Of a DNA stretch of 64,000 bases, positions 3,915 to 19,408 are shown piece after piece. Made by a program: the position numbers and the translations under genes. Origin of the DNA: Escherichia coli (GTDB taxonomy: Bacteria; Pseudomonadota; Gammaproteobacteria; Enterobacterales; Enterobacteriaceae); NCBI RefSeq assembly GCF_024502345.1, contig NZ_JALDNN010000001.1. One strand, given 5' to 3'. Under the pieces are notes generated by a model. The model was not told where the DNA came from. It saw only the letters and a program-made list of their open reading frames with translations, and did no database searches. How positions within the stretch are numbered: the first letter of the stretch is position 1; each line of letters begins with the position of its first letter.

Positions 3915-6176
3915 TCATCCCCGACGCAAATTCTGCGCCGCCTGCACCATGTTCGCCAGTGCCGCGCGGGTTTCTGGCCAGCCGCGCGTTTTCAGGCCAC
4001 AGTCCGGGTTGACCCACAGGCGCTCTGCCGGAATGCGTTTTGCCGCTTTCTTCAGCAAGGCTTCAATCCATTCCACGCTCGGTACGTTTGGCGAGTGAAT
4101 GTCATAGACGCCTGGACCGATTTCATTCGGATAATCAAACTCTTCAAACGACTCCAGCAACTCCATGTCGGAACGCGAGGTTTCGATGGTGATGACGTCT
4201 GCATCCAGTGCCGCAATCGAATCCATGATGTCGTTGAACTCGCAATAACACATGTGAGTGTGGATTTGTGTGTCATCTTTCGCCACGGCGGCGTTGATAC
4301 GGAAGGCCTCCACGCCCCACTGGAGATATGCATCCCAGTCGCTACGACGCAGCGGTAAACCTTCGCGCAGCGCCGGTTCATCAATCTGGATGATGCCAAT
4401 TCCTGCGGCTTCCAGGTCCGCCACTTCATCACGCAGCGCCAGCGCAATTTGTTTGGCGATGGTTTCACGGCTGACATCTTCACGCGGGAACGACCAGCAG
4501 AGAATGGTCACCGGGCCAGTCAGCATCCCTTTCACCGGTTTATCAGTCAGAGATTGCGCATACTTCGCCCACTCCACGGTAATCGGTGCCGGGCGGCTAA
4601 TGTCACCAATGACAATCGGTGGCTTCACGCAGCGGGAACCGTAGCTCTGTACCCAACCGTTTTGCGTAAAGACAAATCCGTCGAGGTGCTCGCCAAAGTA
4701 TTCCACCATGTCATTACGCTCGGCCTCGCCATGTACCAGCACATCCAGTCCCAAACGTTCCTGTTCAACAATGGCCTGCTTGATATGTTCCGCAATGCCC
4801 GTGCGGTAGTTGTTGGCGTCGAGATTACCCTTTTTGAAATCCAGACGCAGGGTACGAATTTCCGTGGTTTGCGGGAAGGAACCAATCGTGGTGGTCGGCC
4901 ACGCTGGCAGTTTAAAACGCGCACGCTGGGCTTCGGCACGCACTTCATAGACATTCGCACGCTGGCTGTCCTGGGCGGTGATCGCCGCCAGACGCTTTTC
5001 TACTGCCGGGTTATGTACACGAGTAGAGTGACGACGCGCCTGAATTGGAGCGCTCCACTCTGCCAGAGCTGCCGTATCACCACTGTTCAGCGCATCTCGC
5101 AGCAGTGCCAGTTCATGACATTTTTGCAGGGCGAAGGCAAACCAGCTTTTCACTTCTGCATCAAGACGCGTTTCCACGCTCAGGTCGATGGGGCTGTGCA
5201 GCAACGAGCAGGAAGATGCCACCCACAAATCACGTTTGCCGACAATGTCCTTAATTTGCGCATATTTCTCAGTAAGATCGGCGCGCCAGACGTTACGACC
5301 ATTGATCAGACCCGCAGACAGCAGCCAGTCAGAAGGCAGGCGCTTGTGCAGTTCAACAACGTCATCTTTACCATGTACAAGGTCCACATGCAGCCCCTGA
5401 ACAGGCAGCGCAGTAATCGTGTCGAGATTTGGCGTTACGCCTTCAAAATAGGTGGTCAGCAGCAGTTTCACCTGTCCCTGGAGCGCGTCGTAAGCGGGTT
5501 TGTATGCGTCCAGCCACGCCTGTGGTAGTTCCAGTACCAGCGCGGGTTCATCAATCTGTACCCACTCGATGCCGCGTTTCGCCAGTTCTGCCAGCACTTG
5601 CTGATAAACCGGCAGAATGTCGTTCAGCAGGCTAAGGCGGTCAAACTGTTCACCTTTCACTTTCCCCAGCCACAGGTAAGTAACCGGCCCCAGCAGCACA
5701 GGCTTAACGTTGTGGCCCAGCGCCAGCGCCTCGTCCACTTCCTCCAGCAGCTGCGTCCAGGTCAGTTTGAACTGTTGGCCTTTAACGAACTCCGGCACCA
5801 TGTAGTGATAGTTGGTGTTAAACCATTTGGTCATTTCCGCTGCCGCCGCAGGTTCGCCAGTCGGCGCACGTCCACGACCAATACGGAACAGGGTGTCGAT
5901 ATCTACCGAACCGTCTTTGTTCTGATGACGTGGCGGAACATTACCCAGCAGCAAACTGGTGGTCAGTACATGATCGTACCAGGCAAAATCGCCCACCGGC
6001 AGCAGGTCGATACCCGCTTGCTTTTGTTGATCCCAGTGACGAGCACGCAGTTCACGCCCTACTGTCAGCAGTTCTTCACGCGTGGAGTTCCCCGCCCAAT
6101 AACTTTCTTGCGCTTTTTTCAGCTCGCGACGCAGGCCAACGCGAGGGAAACCGAGGGTGTGATTCAATATTGTCAT
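3915..6176 (-). CDS. metE: Cobalamin-independent methionine synthase
   Basis: 753-aa ORF, N-terminus [29 protein letters not shown] typical of MetE; divergent from metR as in E. coli. Confidence 0.97.
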
Positions 6177-6411
6177 TTTTCTTCCTCTAATTATATGTAA
6201 ATCCTATGGATTTTGAATTTAGGGAAGGCGGCAAGTTTATTCATCCCCGGGAGCTTACTGAAGTAAGTGACCGGGGTGGAGAAACGCAGCCAACGCACCA
6301 TAAATTTAAAAGACGAAGGATTTTAGCCGTCCAGATGTTTACACATCCATAATTGGCGGTTACTGTATATTCCTCAAGCGCAAATTATTCATGCCGAAGT
6401 GAAGGACTTTC
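6177..6411. promoter_or_regulatory. Divergent metE-metR control region (expected MetR and MetJ operator sites); individual sites not resolved
   Basis: Position between divergently transcribed metE and metR; contains a composite palindrome CCCCGGGAGCTTACTGAAGTAAGTGACCGGGG. Confidence 0.4.
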
Positions 6412-7365
6412 ATGATCGAAGTAAAACACCTGAAAACGCTACAAGCGTTGCGGAACTGCGGCTCTCTCGCAGCCGCTGCGGCGACGTTGCATCAGACGCA
6501 ATCCGCCCTGTCTCACCAGTTTAGCGATCTGGAACAACGCCTTGGCTTCCGGCTATTTGTGCGTAAGAGCCAGCCGCTACGCTTTACACCGCAGGGAGAA
6601 ATCCTGTTGCAACTGGCAAACCAGGTGCTGCCGCAAATCAGCCAGGCACTGCAAGCCTGCAATGAACCGCAGCAGACGCGTCTGCGCATTGCCATTGAGT
6701 GCCATAGCTGTATTCAGTGGCTGACGCCCGCGTTAGAAAATTTCCATAAGAACTGGCCGCAGGTAGAGATGGATTTTAAATCGGGCGTGACGTTTGACCC
6801 GCAGCCCGCGTTGCAACAGGGCGAGCTGGATCTGGTGATGACCTCCGATATCCTGCCGCGCAGTGGCCTGCATTATTCGCCGATGTTCGATTATGAAGTA
6901 CGCCTGGTGTTAGCACCTGACCATCCACTGGCGGCAAAAACGCGTATTACACCGGAAGATCTCGCCAGCGAGACGCTATTAATTTATCCGGTGCAGCGTA
7001 GTCGACTGGATGTCTGGCGGCATTTTCTTCAGCCGGCAGGCGTCAGCCCGTCACTGAAAAGCGTCGATAACACCTTATTGTTGATTCAGATGGTTGCCGC
7101 GCGGATGGGTATTGCCGCGCTACCGCATTGGGTAGTAGAGAGTTTTGAGCGCCAGGGTCTGGTGGTGACCAAAACCCTGGGCGAAGGCTTGTGGAGCCGA
7201 CTGTACGCCGCCGTGCGCGATGGCGAGCAGCGTCAGCCAGTTACGGAAGCGTTTATTCGCTCAGCGCGCAATCACGCCTGCGATCATCTGCCGTTTGTGA
7301 AGAGCGCGGAGCGACCCACTTACGATGCACCCACAGTGAGGCCAGGATCACCAGCGCGCCTGTAA
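6412..7365 (+). CDS. metR: LysR-family transcriptional activator of metE/metH
   Basis: 317-aa ORF with N-terminal LysR helix-turn-helix; divergent from metE. Confidence 0.95.
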
Positions 7366-8152
7366 TAAACGTTGGCCAGTGCGGCTGTTGGTGCCAGATA
7401 GCCAGGTTAACCAGCAGCCCTGCCGGAACGTGCATATTATTCATAATGCCCAGCGTTCCGGCGTCCACCTGCGTCGCGCCGTAGTTCCACATAAAGTAGC
7501 CAATCCCGGAAGCCACCACGCCAAGAAACACCAGAATGCCCCATTGCAACGTGGTTTGCGGCATTTTCTGCGCATTTCCCAGCAAGAACCATGCAATTAC
7601 CGCCACCAGGAACGCGCCAAGATAGAACCACGCAAAGGCGTTATGCTGCGGCATCGGGCGAGTTTCCATCAGGCGTTTGTAACCCACCATGCCGATGGCA
7701 AAAGTGATATTGGAGAGTTGCACCAGCAACAAGCCAGTCCAGAAATGGTCGGTGACCTGATCATAGCGAATAATCCCGGCACCAATCACCGCCAACAAGG
7801 CACTAAAAGCATATCCCCAGCGCAGACGGCGCTTACTCATGATGTCATAAATCAGCGTGATGTAGAGCGGCGTCAGTACGGTGAACAGCAGCAGTTCGGA
7901 AACCGTCAGGTAGAGATAAGCGCGGAAACTCAGCATATACATCACGCCGAGCTGCATCGCGCCCACCAGCATATACAGGCCGACTGTTTTCAGGCTATTG
8001 CCACGGGTACGCAGAAACGGCAGAAAAACGAGTGCCGCCAGGCCAACGCGCACCAGCACCGCAAAATAGCTATCGACGTGCCCCGCAAGGTACTCGCCAT
8101 AAAAGCTAAAGGAGAAGGCCCACAGAATCGTGGTGATGATAAGTAGCGCCAC
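7253..8152 (-). CDS. yigM: EamA/DMT-family inner membrane transporter (biotin transporter YigM)
   Basis: 299-aa polytopic membrane ORF; K-12 synteny; 3' end overlaps the metR 3' end convergently. Confidence 0.85.
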
Positions 8153-8227
8153 AATGGAAAACTCTTTGATTAACGAGTATCCATTGTAGCGAAGTATCAG
8201 GTTGACAACTGACCAAATAAAGAACGA

Positions 8228-9028
8228 TTACGATAAATAGAGTTTACGCAGATAATGCGGCACCGCGTCGTCGGCATTAGTACCAATCACTTCCAGCTCG
8301 GGATGAAGGTCTTTCAGACGCTGGTGCGCACTGCCCATAATGCAGCCTTTCCCCGCCATCGACAGCATTTCGGCATCGTTCATCCCGTCACCAAACGCAA
8401 TACAATCCTTCAGGCTGTAGCCCAGTTTCTTCGCCACCGCTTCCAGCGCATGGCCTTTTGAAACGCCGCCCGCCATCACTTCCAGACAGGTTAAGGTAGA
8501 GAAACTAACGTTGACGCGATCGCCCCAACGAGCGTTAATCGCCTGCTCCAGCGGCAGCAGTTGTTCATGGGAATCGCAGGTGAAGAACACTTTGCTGACG
8601 CCTTCCGGCTCCAGTAATCCAGGCTCATACAGCGCATATTTGAACACCGCTTCTTTAAAAAAGCGCATCTCTTCCGGGCGATGGCGATTCATAAACCATT
8701 CGTCGTCGCGATAAACGTTAGTAATGATGTCCGGATTGTCGTTGACTACGCCAAACAGATCGCTGGCAATGTCGCGATCCAGGTTATGAGCAAAAATCAG
8801 ATTGCCATCCAGATCGTGAACGCGCGCGCCGTTGGAGGTGATCATGTACGACTTGATCTCCAGATTATCGCGAATTTGCCCCACATCAACGTGGTGACGA
8901 CCGGTCGCAAACACAAAGTTGATGCCGCGCGCGGTGAGCAGCTTCAGGGTTTCTTTGGCGTAAGGGGATAACGTATGGTCGGGAGAAAGTAACGTGCCAT
9001 CTAAATCAGACGCAACAACCTGGTACAT
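8228..9028 (-). CDS. yigL: HAD-family Cof-type sugar/pyridoxal phosphate phosphatase
   Basis: Start taken at MYQVVASDLDGTLL (HAD motif I DxDGT); longer six-frame ORF to 9154 rejected; downstream of pldB in same orientation. Confidence 0.85.
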   Translation of the reverse strand: MYQVVASDLDGTLLSPDHTLSPYAKETLKLLTARGINFVFATGRHHVDVGQIRDNLEIKSYMITSNGARVHDLDGNLIFAHNLDRDIASDLFGVVNDNPDIITNVYRDDEWFMNRHRPEEMRFFKEAVFKYALYEPGLLEPEGVSKVFFTCDSHEQLLPLEQAINARWGDRVNVSFSTLTCLEVMAGGVSKGHALEAVAKKLGYSLKDCIAFGDGMNDAEMLSMAGKGCIMGSAHQRLKDLHPELEVIGTNADDAVPHYLRKLYLS

Positions 9029-9035
9029 AAGAAAT

Positions 9036-10058
9036 TTAAACCTCTGTAGAGCGGTTTCCGCTGGGTGAGTTATGCCTGTTGAAAAAATCAACAATGGCGT
9101 GGAGCGCGACTGAGCGCATTGCGTCCTTTTCAAAAAGGATCTCATGGTAAGCACCTTTAATTACCAACGGTCGTCCTCCTTCGACAGGATGGCCCGCGGC
9201 GGTGCGGAGTTCACAAAAACGGTCATGCATGCGGTTATCCACCACGCGTTCCTCTTCAGCCTGCAAGAGAAGCGTTGGCGTGGCGTCATCACCCGCACCG
9301 GCTAACACCTGTTCGCCAGCCAGAATACTTTCGCGTACCCAATGGTAGGTCGGCCCACCGACGCGAATCGTTGGGTCATCAGCATAGAAGCGTAAGTTAC
9401 GTCGATATCGCTGTCTGCTGTGGGTCAGTACGTTGATAGCAAACGGCAACGCGCGCCAGCGCCCGGTGCCTATTGCATAGCCATCACGGAAACGTGGATG
9501 CGCTTCGGCCCAGTTGAGGATCTGCCGTGCCATAAATGACGGCATACGAATCACGATCCCAAACATTGGCGCAGTTAGCGCAATGGCGTCACATACACCT
9601 GGATGGCGTTGCAGAAATAATGTGGAGATCGCACCGCCCATCGAATGTGCCAGTATATAGCGTTTACGCCACGGACCGGGCTGGACCTCCTGTTGCCAGA
9701 ATGCCGCCAGATCATCAACATAATCATTAAAGCGATTAACATGCCCGAGATGCGGATCGGCTAACAGGCGACCGGAACGTCCCTGCCCGCGATGGTCGAT
9801 GATTAAGACATCAAACCCCAAATGGAACAAATCGTAGGCCAGTTCCGCATATTTTACGTAGCTCTCAATACGCCCCGGGCAGATGACTACCACCCGGTCA
9901 TGGTGCTGTGCGCGAAAACGGACAAAGCGCACCGGAATGTCATCCACACCAGTAAACTCTGCTTCATCACGCTGACGCCAGAAATCAGTCAGCGGTCCCA
10001 TGGTAAAAGCAGCAAACGCGTTTTCTCTTGTTTCCCAGTCTTTTTGCTGTTGAAACAT
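9036..10058 (-). CDS. pldB: Lysophospholipase L2
   Basis: 340-aa alpha/beta hydrolase with HSMGG nucleophile motif; synteny. Confidence 0.9.
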   Translation of the reverse strand: MFQQQKDWETRENAFAAFTMGPLTDFWRQRDEAEFTGVDDIPVRFVRFRAQHHDRVVVICPGRIESYVKYAELAYDLFHLGFDVLIIDHRGQGRSGRLLADPHLGHVNRFNDYVDDLAAFWQQEVQPGPWRKRYILAHSMGGAISTLFLQRHPGVCDAIALTAPMFGIVIRMPSFMARQILNWAEAHPRFRDGYAIGTGRWRALPFAINVLTHSRQRYRRNLRFYADDPTIRVGGPTYHWVRESILAGEQVLAGAGDDATPTLLLQAEEERVVDNRMHDRFCELRTAAGHPVEGGRPLVIKGAYHEILFEKDAMRSVALHAIVDFFNRHNSPSGNRSTEV

Positions 10059-10168
10059 CGGGTAATCTGCCTCTTAAACCACGTAAAATCGTTTTTTTTA
10101 GCGTGCCTGACACAACGCTGCGACAGTAGCGTATTGTGGCACAAAAATAGACACACCGGGAGTTCATC

Positions 10169-10798
10169 ATGACCTTAGAATGGTGGTTTGCCTACCTGCT
10201 GACATCGATCATTTTAAGCCTGTCGCCAGGCTCTGGTGCAATCAACACTATGACCACCTCGCTCAACCACGGTTATCGCGGCGCGGTGGCGTCTATTGCT
10301 GGGCTTCAGACCGGACTGGCGATTCATATTGTGCTGGTTGGCGTGGGGTTGGGGACGCTATTTTCCCGCTCAGTGATTGCGTTTGAAGTGTTGAAGTGGG
10401 CAGGCGCGGCTTACTTGATTTGGCTTGGGATCCAGCAATGGCGCGCCGCTGGCGCAATTGATCTTAAATCGCTGGCCTCTACTCAATCGCGTCGACATTT
10501 GTTCCAGCGCGCAGTTTTTGTGAATCTCACCAATCCCAAAAGTATTGTGTTTCTGGCGGCGCTATTTCCGCAATTCATCATGCCGCAACAGCCGCAACAG
10601 CCGCAACTGATGCAGTATATCGTGCTCGGCGTCACCACTATTGTGGTCGATATTATTGTGATGATCGGTTACGCCACCCTTGCTCAACGGATTGCTCTAT
10701 GGATTAAAGGACCAAAGCAGATGAAGGCGCTGAATAAGATTTTCGGCTCGTTGTTTATGCTGGTGGGAGCGCTGTTAGCATCGGCGAGGCATGCGTGA
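10169..10798 (+). CDS. rhtB: LysE/RhtB-family homoserine/homoserine-lactone exporter
   Basis: 209-aa membrane ORF, LysE-family; divergent partner of rhtC as in K-12. Confidence 0.9.
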
Positions 10799-15946: not shown

Positions 15947-15956
15947 GAATTAACAT

Positions 15957-16005
15957 GGGTAGGCCGTTTAATGAGCCTACCCACTGACTTATTTATCTTT
16001 TTTTG
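15957..16005. terminator. Hairpin GGGTAGGC/GCCTACCC followed by T-rich run; candidate bidirectional terminator after rarD
   Basis: 8-bp perfect stem read from sequence, then TTATTTATCTTTTTTTG. Confidence 0.55.
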
Positions 16006-16337
16006 AAAAAAATTAAGATAAGAAAAAGAACAATATTTGTTACAGGAAGTACCCCCAAAACTCCCCAGTACTTACTCCATCCTAGAGACATCGTATATCT
16101 ACCAAGGATTTGACAAAACCCAAAACTTAACCCTATACCTATACTTCTTAAATTTAATGTCGTAGTCAGGCTTAAAATAAATAGAACAAGGATGGTAATA
16201 GCCCACCACAATAACCATGCCTTAACAAAATCAGATTTTTTGCTGTAAGGTTCTTTACCCAAGAACAACTGCCAAAAGTTACCATTCCCCATATAGAATC
16301 CATTCCCCAAGATATTGTTTATAGAATAAAAATACAT
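15993..16337 (-). CDS. Small hypothetical inner-membrane protein (114 aa, two predicted TM helices), AT-rich
   Basis: ORF with hydrophobic segments AWLLWWAITILVLFILSL and WGVLGVLPVTNIVLFLILIFF; possibly the yigG-position gene; identity not verified. Confidence 0.4.
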   Translation of the reverse strand: MYFYSINNILGNGFYMGNGNFWQLFLGKEPYSKKSDFVKAWLLWWAITILVLFILSLTTTLNLRSIGIGLSFGFCQILGRYTMSLGWSKYWGVLGVLPVTNIVLFLILIFFKKR

Positions 16338-16616
16338 TCCAATTATATTTAATTAAAATATACCCCATCAATAAAAACTTACACACTCTAAATTACTACT
16401 GTATAGTTATCAATGCAAAGACTGCTATATTGCATATATATATGCAAACCTCATAATTCAGGTAATATATATATTCAAAACAATTATATATAAAAAACAA
16501 TGTAAAAAATATTCAAATCATCCATCAGAAATATATTCTACCCATCCAGGCTTGAGCATTTATCACGCTTTCAGTTCATAATCTATACATTAACATCATG
16601 GTCAATATTAATAACT

Positions 16617-16895
16617 TTGAATGATATCAACCTGGCTTTGAGTTTTATTCTGGTTATTAATAATACCTATGTAAATATCAATATTGGAGCAAAAAGAATA
16701 AGAGATACTGGATGTAAGGCAATCTACTTTGTATTGATTTCATTGGGTTTGACACTTTTTTCTATTATCTCTGCAGCAATTGAAGGGGTGAGATGTGAGT
16801 CATTAAGCGTCCAACTCAACGTGGCATGGATATTATTCACAACAATTATGTTATCTGCGATTCCCTCGGCTAAAATGTCGCTGTCAGCACACTAA
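16617..16895 (+). CDS. Small hypothetical membrane ORF (92 aa, TTG start, no ATG in open upstream frame); possibly a 5'-truncated remnant, DUF805-like RIRDTG motif
   Basis: Hydrophobic ORF; in-frame upstream sequence is open to 16506 without a Met codon. Confidence 0.3.
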   Translation: MNDINLALSFILVINNTYVNINIGAKRIRDTGCKAIYFVLISLGLTLFSIISAAIEGVRCESLSVQLNVAWILFTTIMLSAIPSAKMSLSAH

Positions 16896-16919
16896 CTTAC
16901 TCACAGCGACATCGTATAG

Positions 16920-17062
16920 TTACAGCCAGTTCTTGCGCTTAAAGTACAGATACGGTGCCAGGCCCGCGAGGATCATAAAGATAATCGCGCCTGGGTAGCC
17001 GAAACTCCACTTCAGTTCTGGCATAAACTCAAAGTTCATGCCATAGCTGGAGGCAATCGGCG
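16920..17062 (-). pseudogene. Duplicated, diverged 3' fragment of corA (last ~47 codons, about 95 percent identical to 19416-19558)
   Basis: Encodes [48 protein letters not shown], near-identical to the CorA C-terminus; homology ends abruptly near 17062. Confidence 0.85.
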
Positions 17063-17233
17063 TAGGAAAAAGTTTCCTAATCGGTAAATTCAATATTTTG
17101 TTATTAACAATGAGCAAGACCAATCATTAACGACGTTCTCTTCAGAGATGTAATGAAAAAATGTGAAGTGTACTTCTTTTTTAAATATTTTTTTACCCTA
17201 GCATTTGTTCTCAAATTGGGTAATGACTCCAAC

Positions 17234-17737
17234 TTATTGATAGTGTTTTATGTTCAGATAATGCCCGATGACTTTGTCATGCAGCTCCACCGATTTTGAG
17301 AACGACAGCGACTTCCGTCCCAGCCGTGCCAGGTGCTGCCTCAGATTCAGGTTATGCCGCTCAATTCGCTGCGTATATCGCTTGCTGATTACGTGCAGCT
17401 TTCCCTTCAGGCGGGATTCATACAGCGGCCAGCCATCCGTCATCCATATCACCACGTCAAAGGGTGACAGCAGGCTCATAAGACGCCCCAGCGTCGCCAT
17501 AGTGCGTTCACCGAATACGTGCGCAACAACCGTCTTCCGGAGCCTGTCATACGCGTAAAACAGCCAGCGCTGGCGCGATTTAGCCCCGACGTATCCCCAC
17601 TGTTCGTCCATTTCCGCGCAGACGATGACGTCACTGCCCGGCTGTATGCGCGAGGTTACCGACTGCGGCCTGAGTTTTTTAAATGGCGGAAAATCGTGTT
17701 GAGGCCAACGCCCATAATGCGGGCGGTTGCCCGGCAT
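17234..17737 (-). CDS. insB: IS1 InsB (expressed as InsAB' transposase by -1 frameshift)
   Basis: 167-aa ORF typical of IS1 InsB, overlapping insA 3' end. Confidence 0.95.
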
Positions 17738-17931
17738 CCAACGCCATTCATGGCCATATCAATGATTTTCTGGTGCGTACCGGGTTGAGAAGCGGTGTAA
17801 GTGAACTGCAGTTGCCATGTTTTACGGCAGTGAGAGCAGAGATAGCGCTGATGTCCGGCGGTGCTTTTGCCGTTACGCACCACCCCGTCAGTAGCTGAAC
17901 AGGAGGGACAGCTGATAGAAACAGAAGCCAC
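17656..17931 (-). CDS. insA: IS1 InsA
   Basis: 91-aa [46 protein letters not shown].. identical in character to IS1 InsA. Confidence 0.95.
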
Positions 17932-18029
17932 TGGAGCACCTCAAAAACACCATCATACACTAAATCAGTAAGTTGGCAGCATCACCCTCAAATTGATATT
18001 GAGCTTAAATATAACCAAGGAAAATGTAA

Positions 18030-18886
18030 ATGAATAACACATTACTTCCATCAATTAATATTCCCTGTACACTTTTCGAAACTATTAGTTTATTTGATGA
18101 TTATTCTGCTGATGATATGCAATATGGTGATATGGTGATATGGTAGAACAAGATTTTCTCTCACTCGGCCTAAGCGATATCTCAGCAAAAGTTGATCCTT
18201 ACAGACTTATTAAATACCATTTCCCTAGCCCAGGTTCTATTAATGTTGCTTTTAGTGCCTCAAGTTCCGGAACAAAAATATCACAACGTGAATGCACTGA
18301 TATTTTATTTGCAGAAATGAAAGAACTAGCAAAAATGTTTTCCTTTTTTGGACAATATAAAACACTTATCGAAGATCTGATTGAACATTTTAGATATGGA
18401 AATGGCAGCAATTTTCATAGCCAACAATTAAATTTATCTTTTCATGAAAAAATAAATAAATATGGTTATAATAGTCCAATACGAATAATCAAAGAATGTA
18501 TCGAAAATGGCATTAATTCAACTCCCTCGACAGGATACCAACCTCTTATCCTGCAAAGCATTAAAACCAAATTACTTTCATCAAGACTAAATAAATTTAA
18601 TGACTTCGAGGACAGTTTTAATGGCTTAGGAATCAGTGTTCATGATATTTCAGCTCAAAAAATATCTCTTTTAAGTTTTCAAAAATACGCTATAGGATGG
18701 AGTGCAACAATTCATTTTGTAGCACAGGACCACTTCGGTCTTGATGTAACTGATATCAAAAACAAGACTTACAGCAAATATAGATTTTTTCGCATATGGT
18801 TCTTTTTACAACGGCATAAAGACTTTGCTTTCAAACCTTTTTTCACCAATTTTAACACTATCGAAAGAATCGAAAATTATCTATGA
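18030..18886 (+). CDS. Hypothetical protein, first gene of accessory two-gene cassette; currently split: 38-codon leader ORF (18030-18146) plus 248-aa ORF (18140-18886) separated by an 8-bp tandem-repeat frameshift
   Basis: ATG 18030 preceded by AAGGA at 9 nt; removing one 8-bp repeat unit fuses the two ORFs into about 283 aa; AT-rich; no recognisable family motif by eye. Confidence 0.55.
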
Positions 18887-19374
18887 AAAGCAAACTCCAG
18901 AAAATTATATTATGTTTATTTCTTCTATGCTGCATCTATAATTTATGGACATTGCGTCCTGTACAGATTTTGTATACATACTCTGATGCTGGCAATTCAG
19001 TCTTTCTGGTCGTTGATCATCTGCCATGGACTGACAGCGATAAAATAAATTGGTATCTGAAGCATCAGAATGAAATTAAAAATCAACATCCCCTACCAGA
19101 AGGTAGTTGGCATACCTGGTATGTCATTGATATCGGTAATGGCTTCACTGACTATAAAAAATATATCGAAGGGCCGTATGAAGATCTCTACTGTTTCCCG
19201 ACAATTAAGAGCAATGATAATTGCATCGTGAAAAATTACTTAATGGTTATTAATGAATACCCTTATCGTAACACTCATATTGTTATTAACGATTTTACTG
19301 AGTATCAATTAACACAAGAAAATAAAATAGAGCGAGTTTTCAATCCGCATGACTTTAAAAAAGACAATTTTTAG
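18883..19374 (+). CDS. Hypothetical signal-anchored/exported small protein (163 aa), second gene of cassette, translationally coupled (ATGA overlap)
   Basis: N-terminal hydrophobic segment KIILCLFLLCCIYNLW; start overlaps stop of upstream gene; AT-rich. Confidence 0.6.
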   Translation: MKSKLQKIILCLFLLCCIYNLWTLRPVQILYTYSDAGNSVFLVVDHLPWTDSDKINWYLKHQNEIKNQHPLPEGSWHTWYVIDIGNGFTDYKKYIEGPYEDLYCFPTIKSNDNCIVKNYLMVINEYPYRNTHIVINDFTEYQLTQENKIERVFNPHDFKKDNF

Positions 19375-19380
19375 AAATAA

Positions 19381-19408
19381 GCCGGATAAAAAAATAGCTT
19401 TATCCGGC
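19381..19408. terminator. REP-like hairpin GCCGGATAAA/TTTATCCGGC between convergent cassette gene and corA
   Basis: 10-bp perfect inverted repeat with 8-nt loop read from sequence. Confidence 0.5.

Follow-up and report, generated by a model that had tools for sequence, protein, structure and literature searches.

Origin of a displaced corA 3' end beside a DUF3289/DUF943 module in Escherichia coli

The window analyzed here, a stretch of 64,000 nucleotides from an Escherichia coli contig (NZ_JALDNN010000001.1), contains the 3' end of corA twice in the same orientation, once at the end of the intact gene and once as a displaced fragment, with an IS1 and a small gene cassette in between. A displaced gene end at one boundary and an intact gene at the other can be read as the footprint of site-specific integration into the 3' end of a gene, and the original prediction, made from this stretch alone, had proposed a decayed or trans-mobilised integrative element that uses corA as its attachment site. 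We therefore ask whether the locus harbors such an element, or whether the repeat is the product of another kind of recombination.

The repeat and the module that it encloses

The predicted same-orientation duplication of about 143 bp (16920-17062 and 19416-19558) is real and extends to 147 nt. An independent repeat search, with which pairwise alignment agrees, returned direct repeats at 16920-17066 and 19416-19562 that share 92% identity and lie 2496 bp apart, with BLAST E-values of ~1e-60; over these 147 nt and at 92%, the similarity is neither shorter nor weaker than it had been read by eye. The right copy (19416..19562, minus strand) is the terminal 147 nt of the intact corA (19416-20366, minus strand), which encodes a full CorA family member. 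The left copy (16920..17066, minus strand), referred to as the corA' fragment, is a pseudogene comprising the final 147 nt of corA with its stop codon. The open reading frame of the fragment scores 79.8 bits against the NCBIfam CorA model (TIGR00383), below the family cut-off of 200.75 bits, and matches only profile positions 273-320 of 320, which marks it as a C-terminal gene fragment. On a homologous stretch, RefSeq carries the label 'CorA family ... incomplete', denoting a partial CorA pseudogene.

Over the last 130 nt, where about seven mismatches had been predicted, exactly seven separate the fragment from its own intact corA (-124, -121, -109, -97, -96, -16 and -6 in coding sense). All seven are synonymous, a run with a probability of ~1e-5 to 8e-5 given that 20-26% of random single changes in those codons are synonymous. 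The decay of identity further inward was also borne out: positions -147 to -133 match patchily (10/15, P ~8e-4 to 4e-3), and inward of -147 the agreement is at chance level (14/40 matches). The encoded peptides differ at PTPI versus PTLV, as had been read. All seven window differences also segregate, as synonymous polymorphisms, among the intact corA genes of E. coli, so the synonymous pattern reflects two functional alleles. The original prediction that the fragment derives from a functional corA of another lineage thus stands as far as a functional allele is concerned, but the source is another E. coli allele and not another species. Across the population, intact corA copies differ only synonymously, with one exception, and the CorA protein WP_000947159.1 is identical across every architecture, one strain excepted. 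In other strains, the fragment has acquired private amino acid changes (Y>D within the YGMN motif, S>G, A>T), indicating that the fragment is drifting as a pseudogene.

With IS1 set aside, the interval between the repeats is made up of a 187-bp AT-rich leader (27% GC), a DUF3289 gene, a DUF943 gene and a hairpin terminator. The corA homology stops at junction J1 between fragment and leader (17066/17067); it is lost within ~15 nt (17052-17066) and is at chance level past that, while the opposite side of the module merges seamlessly into corA. The first part of the leader (17067..17218, plus strand), likewise AT-rich, opens at J1, and the remainder (17996..18029, plus strand), as aligned with IS1-free genomes, reaches the effector start codon. 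The DUF3289/YPO3983 gene (18030..18886, plus strand; Pfam PF11692, E 9.6e-73) encodes an orphan predicted T6SS effector, the intact allele of which scores 439.2 bits against TIGR03034 (cut-off 156.45); a weak match (E 9e-6) was also obtained with PDB entries titled 'DUF3289 family protein'. Next comes the DUF943 gene (18883..19374, plus strand; Pfam PF06092, E 1.8e-26), which is intact here, overlaps the effector stop by 4 nt and encodes the predicted cognate immunity protein. The pairing of DUF3289 with a following DUF943 is kept in all ~20 loci examined. A terminator scan placed the hairpin terminator (19381..19408, minus strand) between DUF943 and corA, where it forms the module-linked downstream flank of the live corA and is unlike the flank that follows the fragment. 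In published work, DUF3289 is an antibacterial toxin of colicin M-like type that acts in the periplasm, and DUF943 provides immunity to it (PMC11148199); furthermore, an Aeromonas DUF3289 effector is delivered in a T6SS-dependent manner (PMC12135965). The window genes share the effector-then-immunity order and the family matches of the published T6SS pairs, but the window copy is an orphan, far from T6SS genes within the stretch examined.

In the window strain, the effector gene is frameshifted by an extra 8-bp tandem unit ATATGGTG (18122-18129) and runs into a stop after 38 codons. More specifically, three tandem 8-bp units (ATATGGTG ATATGGTG ATATGGTA) occupy 18122-18145, compared with two in other strains. 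Furthermore, an IS1 of 768 bp (17219..17986, minus strand) interrupts the leader 43 bp before the start codon of the effector gene and separates this gene from its native upstream region. The strain is therefore in an 'immunity-only' state, with the effector frameshifted and parted from its leader and DUF943 intact. The IS1 carries insA/insB reading frames and terminal inverted repeats (17219-17241 and 17964-17986), is 99-100% identical to IS1 copies in many records, and is bordered by a 9-bp target duplication, CTCAAATTG, at 17210-17218 and 17987-17995; inverted repeats and target duplication on both sides identify it as a simple insertion. Strain HCP4S3_I4, the closest complete genome, has the same effector frameshift without IS1, so the insertion is the most recent event. 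IS1 had been taken as part of the repeat-bracketed structure; with its own target duplication and its absence from HCP4S3_I4, it is instead a later, unrelated insertion.

Other strains show further changes in this interval. In strain AR_0128, whose two repeat copies differ at 11 sites, an IS1 lies elsewhere in the same locus (2100-2797 of the extracted locus), indicating that the AT-rich interval has been struck by IS1 more than once. Strain BS-04 (1958-2720 of its locus) has lost most of the effector gene, and its DUF943 gene is frameshifted with an internal stop. A recurrent 8-bp frameshift was suspected and ruled out, as the frameshift of strain AF57 lies elsewhere in the effector gene.

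Architectures of the locus in E. coli and other enterobacteria

The module is present in ~2630-2760 of 5426 complete E. coli genomes, and the fragment together with the leader junction in 1707 of them, with one junction common to all 1707. The fragment occurs only together with the module, and is thus neither a general feature of E. coli nor one of cassette-less strains. In architecture A, represented by K-12, the gene order is rarD-yigG-yigF-corA, and in architecture B it is rarD-yigG-yigF-corA'-module-corA. Architecture C, the type of the window, has an unrelated AT-rich segment in place of yigG-yigF, and in a fourth architecture, typical of phylogroup-B2-like strains such as E2348/69, rarD is followed by the module and there is no fragment.

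Pairwise mapping describes type B as K-12 plus a 1574-bp insertion located 137-147 bp short of the stop codon of corA. From rarD-yigG-yigF into the fragment, type B follows K-12 without a break (97.4% over 1098 bp), and the homology resumes in corA. Of yigG, the B2-type locus retains an internal piece of 51 bp; everything from there to a point 18 bp inside the leader is missing, which identifies the locus as a deletion derivative of B and not as an independent insertion. In type C, the left flank (15947..16919, 32% GC) replaces yigG-yigF, is unrelated to YigF and YigG, and ends at the stop codon of the corA' fragment. This flank is present in 1429-1463 of the 5426 complete genomes, is joined straight to an intact corA in 24-25, and is best explained by a homologous exchange with the fragment as one arm. 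Its reading frame at 15993-16292 (minus strand) encodes a 99-residue hypothetical membrane protein with no family match, and an unannotated 92-codon frame (16617-16895) shows a weak NCBIfam PRK11371 match (E 1e-4) far below the cut-off. Contigs binned as 'uncultured Alistipes sp.' and 'uncultured Clostridium sp.' carry rarD-corA'-module-corA at 98-100% protein identity and are almost certainly mis-binned E. coli.

The flanks and allelic states of the two copies point to their separate histories. The fragment carries the K-12 states TAT GGC, most module-linked live copies have TAC GGG, and in type B the K-12 corA-yigF spacer follows the fragment and the module's own terminator follows the live copy. 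The locus anatomy, the single junction shared among strains and these allelic affinities are direct observations. Judging from them, the fragment is the corA end of the yigG-yigF (K-12-type) haplotype, and the functional end would have come with the module. Donor identification via corA polymorphisms proved uninformative, since all of the variants are polymorphic within E. coli itself and the states seen in Salmonella are simply the ancestral ones.

Both neighborhoods of corA are found separately in other taxa. The yigF-corA adjacency occurs in Salmonella enterica subsp. enterica and in E. albertii. In S. enterica subsp. arizonae, diarizonae and salamae, as well as in one further enterobacterium, the module lies between rarD and corA without yigG-yigF; close homologs are likewise recorded under S. 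enterica subsp. houtenae. Architecture B thus recombines both old haplotypes, joined at corA -147. A single 1742-bp alignment between S. arizonae and E. coli, at 71%, runs through DUF3289, DUF943, the spacer and corA, and this continuity from effector into corA indicates that the linkage of module and corA is old. No corA fragment was found beside the module in subsp. arizonae, diarizonae or salamae or in the further enterobacterium. In Salmonella and the further enterobacterium, the leader is homologous to that of E. coli for ~20-100 bp upstream of the effector start, and the donor state, a leader running leftwards past J1, was found in no genome, so that the illegitimate or ligated joint is not reconstructable.

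The locus also provides a record of module loss. A synthetic 'excised' query (left flank plus corA) gave a contiguous match in 24-25 genomes, at least seven of them O157:H7; most O157:H7 carry the module. Complete O157:H7 genomes that lack the module owing to a scarless deletion between the repeats include Z1835, Z1836, AC-3, AC-5, NZRM3614, CV261 and 7784. When compared with the module-bearing O157:H7 strain MB9-1, Z1835 is free of mismatches over 1860 bp of left flank and 1885 bp of right flank. Its corA end (locus 1921-2070) is chimeric, with live-copy markers at -133, -124 and -121, fragment markers at -16 and -6, and the fragment's downstream flank. The markers place the crossover no finer than a 104-bp identical block between -121 and -16, with which a fixed crossover point is also compatible; a crossover inside this block is what general homologous recombination is expected to produce. 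By these markers, Z1835 represents a precise deletion of the module via crossover between the repeats, with the CorA protein unchanged, and the repeats remain substrates for recombination. The derivatives that followed the original join comprise the left-flank swap of type C, the B2-type deletion, IS1, the frameshift and the repeat-mediated loss in O157:H7.

Members of the same module family lie at a second site, between fadH and the convergent lsrK, in Enterobacter, Lelliottia, Huaxiibacter and Trabulsiella. In Trabulsiella guamensis, a 58-91-bp lsrK 3' fragment is situated just before the leader of the lsrK-proximal module, a topology as at corA, and in Enterobacter asburiae a remnant of a foreign lsrK allele (7401-7591) lies between the module and the resident lsrK. 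No lsrK fragments were present in the five other lsrK-locus samples; with fragments in two of seven, the scar is occasional and not a rule. Neighbor-gene scars are thus a recurrent by-product of module acquisition and not a constant part of the module. No similarity was detected in a search for a motif common to the corA-type and lsrK-type leaders.

In Trabulsiella, Huaxiibacter and Enterobacter-like genomes, the fadH-lsrK interval holds arrays of these modules with truncated effector C-terminal pieces and extra, diverged DUF943 genes (5989-10568, 6001-8095 and 5001-7562 of the extracted loci), a layout similar to that of the arrays of orphan toxin tips and immunity genes at Rhs, CDI and Vibrio T6SS loci. 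In E. asburiae, repeats with a 68-bp period (5556-5834 and 7586-7728) flank the module and enter the lsrK 3' end, where the predicted protein is ~16 residues longer. An apparent upstream lsrK' copy in the same genome (5786-5880) was discounted, as it consists largely of this 68-bp intergenic repeat family overlapping the extended lsrK end.

A probable recombination scar and alternative explanations

As the original prediction had noted, no integrase is present: the reading frames between the repeats are IS1 insA/insB, DUF3289 and DUF943. Neither the RefSeq annotation of 12 E. coli loci nor gene calls in other species contain a recombinase or integrase at the locus, and the search for elements at the corA 3' end with an associated recombinase in other enterobacteria gave no integrase in any architecture or species examined. 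The nearest recombinase gene is the core gene xerC, ~5 kb off and beyond uvrD and yigB. Searching the whole window for the 28-bp E. coli dif with up to 3 mismatches returned no site, the repeat-bounded segment has no terminal inverted repeats, and a synthetic query for a circle or tandem-array junction matched 0 of 5426 genomes. One cargo type and one junction were seen across the 1707 fragment-bearing genomes.

Carriage on plasmids was considered and rejected. Only two records labeled as plasmids contain the junction, both megabase-sized and chromosome-like, and the other matches are full-length plasmid-borne corA. Such full-length corA genes occur on ~59 large plasmids, most of them conjugative, from Salmonella, E. 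coli, Citrobacter and Enterobacter (e.g., NZ_CP016838.1 and NZ_AP027687.1), and their 3' ends are 92-94% identical to the chromosomal E. coli corA.

With no recombinase, dif-like site, terminal inverted repeats, plasmid, circle or tandem array, and with a single junction, a dedicated site-specific system is not supported. Only leader, effector gene, immunity gene, terminator and the later IS1 lie between the repeats, and the proposal of a decayed or trans-mobilised element finds no support. What survives of the footprint argument is that the insert brought its own corA 3' end; the site-specific integration that was read into it does not. The corA'/corA repeat is an ordinary recombination scar and not a new mobile element.

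We consider it likely that the scar goes back to one ancient homology-anchored join by host recombination, which merged two trans-specific versions of the rarD-corA interval. Version 1, found in K-12, E. albertii and S. enterica subsp. enterica, would be rarD-yigG-yigF-corA; in version 2, found in Salmonella subsp. arizonae, diarizonae and salamae, a DUF3289 and DUF943 module would follow immediately downstream of corA. A piece of ~1.72 kb, made up of the corA end from -147 to the stop codon, the terminator, DUF943, DUF3289 and the complete 187-bp leader, would have entered a yigF-type chromosome, with homology in the highly conserved 3' end of corA as its anchor. The incoming end would then have become the working corA end, and the resident last 147 bp, displaced to the far side, would have decayed into a pseudogene. 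The join may have taken place by a RecA single crossover of a circularised fragment or, alternatively, by a homologous crossover combined with one illegitimate join.

Homology is continuous on one side of the insert, the joint on the other side is abrupt and non-homologous, and the anchor is present twice, features of a homology-anchored insertion, a process that we infer from its product. A direct duplication of the anchor with one abrupt joint is the product predicted for the single crossover, and the second route gives the same product; either route may have operated, and either haplotype may have been the donor. For incoming DNA that has homology on one side only, E. coli has been shown to use both routes (PMC3240628). 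In the first of them, linear DNA entering with one homologous region is reportedly circularised and then integrated by a recA-dependent single crossover (PMC3240628). The innermost 15 nt of the fragment, of which 5/15 are mismatched, are explained simply by neither route, and this counts against the proposed join. So do the donor state that was found in no genome, the uninformative corA polymorphisms, the coarse placement of the O157:H7 crossover and the occasional nature of the lsrK scars.

Several other explanations were weighed against these data. A site-specific integrative element, with the corA 3' end as attB, the replacement end as attP and the integrase lost or supplied in trans, would have a topology identical to that of e14 at icd (PMC6379469); precise excision restoring corA does occur, and a degenerate arm could account for the patchy similarity at the fragment's inner edge. 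We nevertheless regard it as very unlikely. Beyond the lack of an integrase or excisionase in the architectures and species examined, of a dif-like site and terminal inverted repeats, and of a circle or tandem junction in 5426 genomes, the insert is only 1.6 kb long, holds two genes of known non-recombinase families, and has a single junction and a single cargo. The module moreover adjoins corA without a fragment in Salmonella subspecies, and the B2-type locus is a deletion derivative and not an independent integration. An actively cycling, recombinase-free cassette, leaving as a 1.7-kb circle via RecA and re-entering naive corA genes in many integrations, fares somewhat better and is still unlikely. 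It draws on the documented precise loss, on the known recA-dependent single-crossover integration of circularised DNA in E. coli, and on scars of similar topology at lsrK; since re-integration regenerates the same junction, the shared junction does not count events. However, the circle or tandem junction is seen in 0/5426 genomes, it is not evident how a 1.7-kb circle that does not replicate would be transferred in E. coli, fragments accompany only 2/7 lsrK loci, and the spread of the module is equally explained by ordinary flanking-homology transfer.

The two remaining alternatives concern the fragment itself. That a local tandem duplication of the corA 3' end came first and the module was inserted between the copies later appears highly improbable. 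Repeats of such size can arise by duplication and the copies are nearly identical, but two events would be needed where one suffices, and no genome with two adjacent corA ends and no module was seen in the E. coli complete-genome queries. In addition, the copies differ in allelic markers and downstream flanks, and the flank of the live copy is, together with the module, syntenic and alignable with the module-corA arrangement of Salmonella, so that they arrived as a unit. Retention of the fragment for a function is extremely unlikely, for example as a small membrane protein that interferes with CorA and is encoded by a 67-codon frame (16920-17123, minus strand). This frame exists and would hold the GMN motif and the second transmembrane helix, and its corA-shared part in the window differs only synonymously from the live gene. 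The synonymous differences are, however, inherited allelic polymorphisms, and the fragments of the population have acquired the private nonsynonymous changes described above, including Y>D in YGMN. Furthermore, the frame starts with TTG and has no promoter-like signal above background, and the fragment is absent from the B2-type locus and the deletion derivatives.

A broader reading of the two loci is possible though unlikely, namely that orphan DUF3289/DUF943 modules spread as recombinase-free 'borrowed-homology' cassettes, in which a portable 3' gene end serves for Campbell-type entry by RecA and for precise exit. On this reading, the corA'/corA repeat would still function in attachment and would not be a dead scar, and the arm would be the 3' end of a housekeeping gene that is convergent and highly conserved, corA in Escherichia and lsrK in Trabulsiella and Enterobacter.

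Implications and comparison with known systems

The ancient join by host recombination would account for the partial-CorA pseudogene annotated in roughly one third of complete E. coli genomes. It shows an interbacterial-competition module fixed beside an essential-type housekeeping gene that remains undisrupted. The 147-bp repeats make the module cleanly losable, as documented in O157:H7, so a single scarless recombination is enough for strains of the same lineage to differ in a toxin/immunity pair. The locus also illustrates, in nature, the recombination products that laboratory work with one-sided homology in E. coli predicts, and it cautions that a displaced gene end is not always evidence of an integrase-driven element.

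In its anatomy, the locus resembles e14 and phage 21 at icd (icd'/icdC in K-12). At e14, the 3' end of icd is displaced, the gene is restored by the incoming DNA, and excision restores a functional gene (PMC6379469). In both cases the original end is left behind as a direct-repeat pseudogene, of 163 bp for icd and 147 bp for corA. In contrast, e14 and phage 21 are prophages with an integrase and a defined att core, whereas the corA insert is 1.6 kb long, recombinase-free and without signs of repeated site-specific use.

With respect to mechanism, laboratory single-crossover (Campbell-type) integration and homology-facilitated illegitimate recombination in E. coli likewise place foreign DNA beside a homologous anchor, and the circularised single crossover duplicates that anchor (PMC3240628). 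These are laboratory plasmid observations, while the corA case is inferred from a natural and ancient product. For the displacement of T6SS effector-immunity genes in Vibrio cholerae, the mechanism proposed is homology-facilitated illegitimate recombination (PMC5361080). As in the corA case, these displacements and those of Rhs and CDI C-termini combine homology on one side with a non-homologous join on the other, and the older sequence is pushed aside. The anchor in V. cholerae, Rhs and CDI is a conserved part of an effector or T6SS gene and the displaced piece is the old toxin tip or immunity gene, whereas at corA an unrelated housekeeping gene takes this part. In form, the closest known counterpart of the corA locus is e14 at icd, and in mechanism it is the homology-anchored effector-immunity displacements.
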